Of a DNA stretch of 28,305 nt, positions 6,227 through 6,432 are shown one piece after another. The translations under genes were made by a program, and so were the position numbers. Source of the stretch: a virus (taxonomy: Duplodnaviria > Heunggongvirae > Uroviricota > Caudoviricetes); the IMG/VR virus record IMGVR_UViG_2681813235_000002, positions 1 to 28,305 of that record, one strand, 5' to 3'. The notes below the pieces were generated by a model that saw only the letters and a list, made by a program, of their open reading frames with translations, was not told the origin of the DNA and did no database searches. Each line of letters opens with the position of its first letter. Position 1 is the first letter of the stretch.

Positions 6227-6247
6227 CCCCCCACCCCCCCAGGGGGG
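6227..6247. other. G/C-only island C6-A-C7-A-G6; candidate cos/packaging element or hairpin
   Basis: ccccccacccccccagggggg in AT-rich intergenic DNA, about 185 bp upstream of the small terminase start, followed by an A/T-tract-rich region. Confidence 0.4.
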
Positions 6248-6319
6248 TAAGGTGTCTGTACTATAGAATAAAATAAAAAAATTATTTAAATTATTTTTAA
6301 AATATCTTAAAAAAAATAT

Positions 6320-6348
6320 TGACTTTAGGTTCCCCTTGTGATATGCAA
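6320..6348 (+). promoter_or_regulatory. candidate promoter upstream of the terminase operon
   Basis: TTGACT, 17-nt spacer, TATGCA (weak -10). Confidence 0.25.
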
Positions 6349-6432
6349 ATACCTGGAGTTTCCGCCGCGATCTCTTTTTTTTATATAAAAAATAATCAAA
6401 GTTTAACAAACAATTAAAAGGTAAAAACTATC

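Follow-up and report, generated by a model that had tools for sequence, protein, structure and literature searches.

A G/C tract at cos distance from a lambda-type terminase gene is probably part of a gene-end stem-loop in a swappable prophage cassette

Introduction

In the lambda model, the cohesive-end site cos is expected upstream of the small terminase gene, terS (PMC4669245), and conservation among lambda-like phages is higher for the subsites cosN and cosQ than for cosB (PMC4669245). The DNA analysed here, referred to as the window, is the whole stretch of 28,305 nucleotides from IMG/VR virus record IMGVR_UViG_2681813235_000002 (Caudoviricetes). A short way upstream of its terS lies an island made almost entirely of C and G runs. 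Is this tract a cohesive-end site, as a sequence-only reading had proposed, or does it belong to something else?

Results

The tract and its surroundings

The features around the tract are as follows.

6227-6247, + strand: G/C island C6-A-C7-A-G6, CCCCCCACCCCCCCAGGGGGG (direct read of the window sequence)
6215-6259, + strand: imperfect inverted repeat, or stem-loop (RNA MFE, inverted repeats I2 and I19)
6262-6325, no strand assigned: A/T-rich stretch with A4-A8 and T5 runs, without helical phasing (tract positions and a periodicity test)
5867-6211, + strand: ORF114, orphan accessory gene upstream of the stem-loop (ORF listing)
6433-6954, + strand: small terminase gene (terS), with a distantly Nu1-like N-terminal winged HTH (phrog_57, E 2.6e-14)
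6854-8824, + strand: large terminase gene (terL), GpA family, a pseudogene (Pfam GpA_ATPase and GpA_nuclease on three ORFs)

The island is exactly as the sequence-only reading had described it, C6-A-C7-A-G6 on the + strand, and the spacing to the terminase given there, about 185 bp, agrees with the 185 nt that separate the end of the tract from the terS ATG at 6433. The tract begins 16 nt past the stop codon of ORF114. With 19 of its 21 positions G or C it is the top G/C 21-mer of a window whose GC content is 35.5%, and it contains three of the four runs of C or G of at least 6 bases in the window. Even when up to 3 mismatches were tolerated, the window contained no second copy, nor did the tract have a match in any of 100 dinucleotide-preserving shuffles. 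Thirteen copies, fetched from independent assemblies at NCBI and ENA, carry it without a single difference, so it is no assembly artefact. The lengths of the C6, C7 and G6 runs are constant in these 13 copies, whereas nearby A-runs differ in length.

Searches for the tract beyond this prophage yielded little. Searching the phage collection at the nucleotide level with 5000-9000 and with 6150-6440 gave nothing useful. Because a low-complexity filter may mask the tract in such searches, scans for the exact tract were added. These revealed no match in 2.9 million viral contigs and only three among 185,579 species representatives, all chance matches in unrelated MAGs. No Rfam family matched 5100-6500. 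The A/T tracts downstream had been described as phased and possibly bending the DNA. The A/T runs at 6262-6325 are real, but their phasing is unsupported, since AA/TT periodicity at 9-12 bp does not rise above that of shuffled sequence (the fraction of shuffles reaching the observed value was 0.31-0.77); bending by these tracts was rejected for the same want of periodicity.

The only other G/C-rich island of the window (10716-10741, GCCGAGACCCGGCCGTGACCCTGCCG, at least 17/21 G/C) occupies the 3' end of the portal gene, directly before the protease-capsid gene. A diverged G/C-rich counterpart is found at the equivalent position in L036, another E. coli copy of the prophage.

A lambda-type terminase in a decaying prophage

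The description of the downstream genes as a Nu1-like small terminase followed by a GpA-like large terminase proved essentially right (phrog_57 for terS; Pfam GpA, with scores of 91 and 64 bits, for terL), with the qualification that the likeness to gpNu1 is weak. The Pfam Nu1 match of terS scores 18.3 bits, below the cut-off of 30, and the best PDB matches of a three-sequence profile, lambda gpNu1 6hn7 and 1j9i, extend over the N-terminal winged HTH with weak E values of 0.03-0.4. Downstream of terL are a lambda-family portal gene, a protease-capsid fusion and a complete siphovirus tail module. With a terminase of lambda type, it was fair to expect cos within ~200 bp upstream of terS, the range in which the tract lies.

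The terminase of this copy is, however, broken. When the intact TerL of a related Erwinia prophage was compared with the window by tblastn, the match passed through frames 2, 3, 1 and 2 with seamless residue numbering. In all, +1 frame corrections are needed at three sites in terL (7451, ~7864-7889 and 7996), one in the portal gene (9929) and one in the protease-capsid gene (12428), so that each of these genes is a pseudogene in the window. Four of the five frameshifts are clean single-base insertions, with seamless alignment on either side and no in-frame stops, and none of the sites is a slippery homopolymer; their uniform +1 direction may be due to chance. terL and portal are split in every listed E. 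coli copy with called genes, and the prophage is defective and decaying. The frameshifts are partly polymorphic, the ATPase domain of terL being intact in L005, L008 and L018.

The prophage is found in many assemblies: an exact-protein look-up of terS returned ~1100 assembly blocks, most of them E. coli chromosomes 4.7-5.1 Mb long. Of the 5426 complete E. coli genomes in RefSeq, 20 have the prophage. In NZ_CP050646.1 it has ~35% GC and nearly all its genes on one strand, and is inserted in yegD beside a large serine recombinase. The interrupted yegD, annotated as a partial pseudogene, adjoins the recombinase gene at 47942-50235 of that record (L024), and is the integration site of the prophage family in that strain. 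In the window, 13450-15900 encodes a protein of 816 aa. Its N-terminal ~140 residues match major tail protein families (phrog_158), and the remainder matches tail-fibre families and has repeated GGTG-type motifs; many other copies have the protein split into ORFs of 415 and 195 aa.

The tract lies in a swappable cassette

The cassette upstream of terS was delimited as follows.

~1597-6355, + strand: variable cassette, or hotspot (homology breakpoints, gene content and PADLOC)
5670-6355, + strand: swappable segment comprising the 3' end of a frameshifted gene, ORF114, the G/C stem-loop and the A/T-rich stretch (blastn against L036)
5440-5836, + strand: frameshifted small-gene remnant, homologous to 9184-9546 of the Erwinia prophage L025 (BLASTP, 31% identity, E 8e-4)

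At least four versions of it occur among the E. coli copies, and they include known defence systems.

Type A (L001-L006, L009-L012): HNH gene and type I CBASS (cyclase 363 bits, 2TM effector 223 bits; PADLOC)
Type B (L008, L013): Old-family nuclease (249 bits; PADLOC)
Type C (L007, L014-L023): the version of the window, with small genes, ORF228, ORF114 and the tract (assemblies GCA_000617285.2 and GCA_001575755.1, for example)
Type D (L036): no ORF114 and no tract, 5670-6355 being replaced

Homology of the window to other E. coli copies breaks off near 1596 on the left side and is regained at 6347-6356 on the right; types A to D all rejoin at one point, GAGTTTCCGCCGCG, at 6356. The comparison with L036 narrows the exchange further. 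In blastn, 1997-5669 matches at 98.9% and 6356-10952 at 98.3%, with no match between: 686 nt of the window (5670-6355) are swapped for an unrelated 249 nt. The tract is thus restricted to a single variant, type C. ORF114 was indexed in 147 assembly blocks, compared with 1100 for terS, and most prophage copies must therefore be without the tract; among the 20 complete RefSeq E. coli genomes that carry this prophage, none has ORF114. The gene before the slot in the Erwinia prophage is homologous to the remnant at 5440-5836, indicating that the window retains ancestral synteny in which the occupant of one slot has changed. L033 has nothing in that slot, and Erwinia has an unrelated gene of 75 aa there. 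The tract would accordingly be gained and lost together with ORF114 by recombination between related prophages, with one crossover inside the gene before ORF114 and the other exactly at the GAGTTTCC motif at 6356.

Several further observations concern the cassette. The remnant at 5440-5836 sits in an apparently gene-free gap of 685 nt, its Erwinia counterpart is an uncalled ORF, and in L036 the gene has a 3' end that differs and is longer. The alternative occupants of the hotspot are located at 7615-9836 in L004 and 7795-9615 in L008. Straddling the left cassette edge are two diverged tRNA-like copies, 876-993 and 1721-1838, with 74% identity overall and identical over the last ~45 nt; behind each of them stands the same canonical terminator, consisting of GGTGTCCAGTGTGGACGCC and T6. 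ARAGORN called neither, and Rfam gave a sub-threshold tRNA-clan match at 1722-1791 (28.5 bits, E 0.003).

Relatives of the prophage lack the tract

Comparison with relatives does not support the tract as cos: neither types A, B and D nor the intact Erwinia relative carry it, nor do five further lineages. The terminase genes of types A, B and D are 97-99% identical to those of the window. Since the terL and portal frameshifts are common to the E. coli copies, loss of cos from types A, B and D could have been costless, so the comparison within E. coli cannot decide the question by itself; the main weight falls on Erwinia and the other lineages. The prophage of Erwinia sp. E602 (L025; CP046582.1, ~2.563-2.584 Mb) is syntenic and appears to be intact (TerL 657 aa, portal 503 aa, protease-capsid 637 aa), and it has a terS that is 58% identical. 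Its intergenic region upstream of terS is 224 nt long, compared with 221 nt in the window, and has no G/C island. The other lineages are represented by six sequences: L026 and L033, with terS identities of 55-56%, L034 and L035, with 30-31%, and L045 and L050, with another allele. In the 260 nt that precede a conserved block between the tract and terS (6326-6392 in the window, described below), none of the six contains a run of 8 or more bases made of G and C only. With one mismatch allowed, 9-mers of the tract recur in 0-2 of 10 other sequences, as against 7-8 of 10 for 9-mers of the block.

Relatives of terS were found neither in species-representative genomes nor in cultured phages. Phage DCP80, which has the closest cultured TerL (33% identity), was dropped as a comparator, being a Straboviridae record with no similar motif at its start. 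Also dropped was an apparent alignment with a 30-nt insertion between TGATGG and AAGGT in Erwinia, which MAFFT did not reproduce.

For the tract to be cosN, it would have to be the place where terminase introduces staggered nicks, with symmetric arms TACCCCCC and GGGGGGTA around a 9-nt core, and the A/T-rich DNA and GTTTCC-type motifs downstream would have to act as a TerS-binding region like cosB. Much of the layout is consistent with this. As in lambda, a winged-HTH small terminase, a GpA-family large terminase and a lambda-family portal follow one another in the same order; the tract, a G/C island in A/T-rich DNA, lies 185-205 nt upstream of terS, compared with 190 nt in lambda, and is quasi-palindromic, with partial dyad symmetry, like cosN; and GTTTCC-core motifs between the tract and terS give the lambda order cosN-cosB-terS. 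The pattern of conservation is, however, the reverse of that in lambda-like phages: the putative cosB motifs are conserved and the putative cosN is not, being missing from every relative examined, whereas cosN is the most conserved cos subsite (PMC4669245). Furthermore, the tract belongs, with an orphan gene, to a recombinationally swapped segment, its sequence does not resemble GGGCGGCGACCT, the A/T tracts beside it are unphased, the terminase of this copy is a pseudogene, and the element that is conserved family-wide lies 80-130 nt nearer to terS than the tract does. We consider a cosN role for the tract very unlikely. None of the fetched contigs ends at the tract or at the block.

A stem-loop directly behind ORF114

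The tract is the core of a larger fold. The arms of the stem-loop, at 6215-6232 and 6242-6259, enclose a 9-nt loop, A-C7-A, at 6233-6241; the partial twofold symmetry of TACCTACCCCCC and GGGGGGTAAGGTG on either side of this core is not specific to cos. The stem is imperfect, with 17-bp arms in which the first C6 and the flanking ACCT pair with G6 and the flanking AAGGT. A hairpin had been suggested as the alternative to cos, with C7 and G6 as tight arms. The hairpin itself is upheld, although not those arms, because the best fold pairs C6 with G6 and leaves C7 looped out. The RNA MFE of 6215-6259 is -23.7 kcal/mol for the + strand and -24.6 kcal/mol for the - strand. Relative to dinucleotide shuffles the z-score is only -1.4 to -1.8, a modest value that reflects the retention of CC and GG runs in the shuffles. 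For a G-quadruplex or i-motif, which was also considered, the - strand supplies just two G-runs.

The stem starts 4 nt past the ORF114 stop codon. Like an intrinsic (Rho-independent) terminator, it is a G/C-rich stem-loop right after a stop codon; unlike one, it has a 9-nt loop and is followed by ACTATAGAATAA with no T-run, whereas the hairpins at 1801-1825, 3244-3266 and 3292-3307 combine a short loop with a T-run. The last of these shows that the cassette also has a G5/C5-armed terminator. The scan for terminators found 23 canonical candidates in 20 kb of the window, compared with 9.6 +/- 3.0 expected, and did not list the tract hairpin; a canonical intrinsic terminator was rejected for it on account of the loop and the missing T-run. 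In several other lineages a hairpin of -9 to -16 kcal/mol is likewise found just past the last cassette gene. The corresponding hairpins are weak in Erwinia (-7.9 kcal/mol) and L033 (-2.6 kcal/mol), and the pattern is therefore not universal.

ORF114 is an orphan in every search made. It matched no family in Pfam, PHROG, NCBIfam or PADLOC, and 5.8 billion proteins contained no homologue outside this element. The AlphaFold model is all-beta with moderate confidence (pLDDT 61), and a fold search with it gave no match at E <= 0.001. A promoter-like site, TTCACA-18-AATAAT (10/12), is located at 5807-5836, 30 nt upstream of the gene; it counts as a candidate only, with promoter-like matches in the window being fewer than in shuffles. 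Together, candidate promoter, ORF114 and hairpin have the promoter-gene-hairpin layout of a moron. Phage morons, described in HK97 and HK022, are units of promoter, gene and terminator inserted among conserved phage genes. ORF114 is similar in that it is a small orphan, found between the conserved flanks in some near-identical prophages and missing from others, with a promoter-like site before it and a G/C-rich stem-loop directly after it. It differs in that the stem-loop lacks the T-run of factor-independent termination and in that its G+C content is the same as that of its surroundings; its expression is putative.

These data suggest that the tract is probably the core of an ordinary stem-loop that closes the ORF114 accessory-gene unit, and not a cohesive-end site. 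Most likely the hairpin acts at the RNA level. Transcription of ORF114 would place it at the 3' end of the mRNA, where it could shield the transcript from 3' exonucleases, and it could also pause or partly halt read-through towards the terminase operon.

The main rival to a gene-end stem-loop, and a serious one, is that the tract has no function, being either a mutational quasi-palindrome, produced for instance by template switching or slippage, or a donor-phage relic in a young clonal element. Invariance of the tract says little against this, for nearly all of the sequence in these copies, which are 97-100% identical, is invariant as well; the tract has no homologous element elsewhere, the viral contigs giving no match and the unrelated MAGs three by chance; no Rfam family matches it; and the prophage is decaying. 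On the other hand, three long C/G runs arranged as an inverted repeat with 17-bp arms at the end of a gene are an unlikely accident at 35% GC, and the C/G runs have stayed unchanged between copies in which adjacent A-runs changed length. We regard a functionless tract as possible, if rather doubtful.

A different role, as a barrier in the late operon, would have the tract impose a pause or termination that keeps early or cargo transcription out of terS until a phage antiterminator lifts it, or act as a phase-variable C/G-run switch. The genes from recombinase to tail are all on one strand, which makes control of read-through before terS plausible; the strong hairpin is ~100 nt ahead of the conserved block; and type C has a promoter-like TTGACT-N17-TATGCA, preceded by TG, just downstream at 6319-6347. 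Relatives do without the tract, however, and no antiterminator was found among the cassette genes. Runs of 6-7 are short for contingency loci and showed no length polymorphism in 13 copies, and phase variation of the tract was rejected on the invariance of C6, C7 and G6. A barrier role is accordingly improbable.

A conserved block nearer to terS

Between the tract and terS there are two conserved motifs 30 nt apart, one with a GTTTCC core, which are candidate TerS-binding repeats. With the palindrome that follows them they make up a block, 6326-6392.

6326-6335, + strand: motif 1, TAGGTTCCCC, with family consensus TAGGTTCTCC (11/11 sequences, 8 lineages)
6356-6370, + strand: motif 2, GAGTTTCC plus the G/C box GCCGCG (junctions, family alignment and shared 9-mers)
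6375-6392, no strand assigned: A/T palindrome T8-ATAT-A6 (inverted repeats I22 and I23, alignments)

The order of the block is T(A/G)G(G/T)T(T/C)C(T/C)CC, a variable spacer of 19-21 nt, G(A/T)GTTT(C/T)C, a G/C-rich box of 8-11 nt and an A/T-rich palindrome; in short form it reads TAGGTTCYCC, 20 nt, GAGTTTCC with the G/C box, and the A/T palindrome. In all 11 sequences, from eight lineages, motif 1 lies 29-31 nt upstream of motif 2, and the block ends 70-139 nt before the terS ATG. The palindromes are centred on ATAT or CATATG, the counterparts of that in the window being ATTTTCATATATGAAAT in Erwinia and CTTTCATATGAAAG in L026. The block is kept across the eight lineages even though terS identity drops to 30%. 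Its coordinates in the relatives are 9901-9960 in L025, 3796-3850 in L033, 3840-3890 in L034, 3843-3890 in L035, 564-620 in L045 and 528-585 in L050.

The lambda sites R1-R3 (cosB, Nu1-binding) all contain CGTTTCC, as checked on NC_001416, and GAGTTTCC has the GTTTCC core common to them, as would suit a TerS whose HTH is Nu1-like. The block is in addition a mosaic junction, for L045 has the left side of L036 and the right side of L050. The motif pair occurs once in the window and single-motif matches are near chance, a result that does not separate a late promoter from cos. Judged from these sequence comparisons, the packaging recognition site is better sought in the block than in the tract, and we regard the block as the best candidate for it; the block may instead be a late promoter with activator sites.

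Discussion

The locus invites comparison with P2 and P4, in which variable defence loci adjoin cos and recombination has been proposed to be fed by cos cleavage (PMC9122126, 2022). The cassette resembles those hotspots in being a sharp-edged variable locus by the packaging region, in carrying an Old-family nuclease and CBASS as cargo, and in the resumption of conserved sequence at a single fixed point. It differs in the prophage that houses it, which has a serine recombinase, a lambda-type terminase and a siphovirus tail and is defective; adjacency of this cassette to cos is presumptive. Two bolder proposals can be made from the same likeness. The tract could be a packaging or cleavage site borrowed from another phage along with ORF114, letting the terminase of a helper phage cut and package type C copies in a satellite-like rescue. 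More modestly, the block at 6326-6392 could be the true cos of an undescribed prophage family with a serine recombinase and a lambda-type terminase, its cleavage driving the exchange of defence cassettes as proposed for P2/P4. Taken jointly, these are the least probable of the explanations considered here, and we hold them to be highly speculative.

A gene-end stem-loop, by itself, gives the tract little weight. The case does illustrate that a conspicuous G/C island at the textbook distance of cos can be lineage-specific cargo, and that a comparison of relatives settles the matter fast. The surrounding locus is worth more: a sharp-edged hotspot, in a prophage family found in >1000 assemblies, that swaps CBASS, Old and orphan genes beside a block containing GTTTCC. 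If the block is the packaging site, it would supply candidate TerS recognition motifs, and the 'defence hotspot next to cos' would reach beyond P2/P4 to a siphovirus lineage with a lambda-type terminase.
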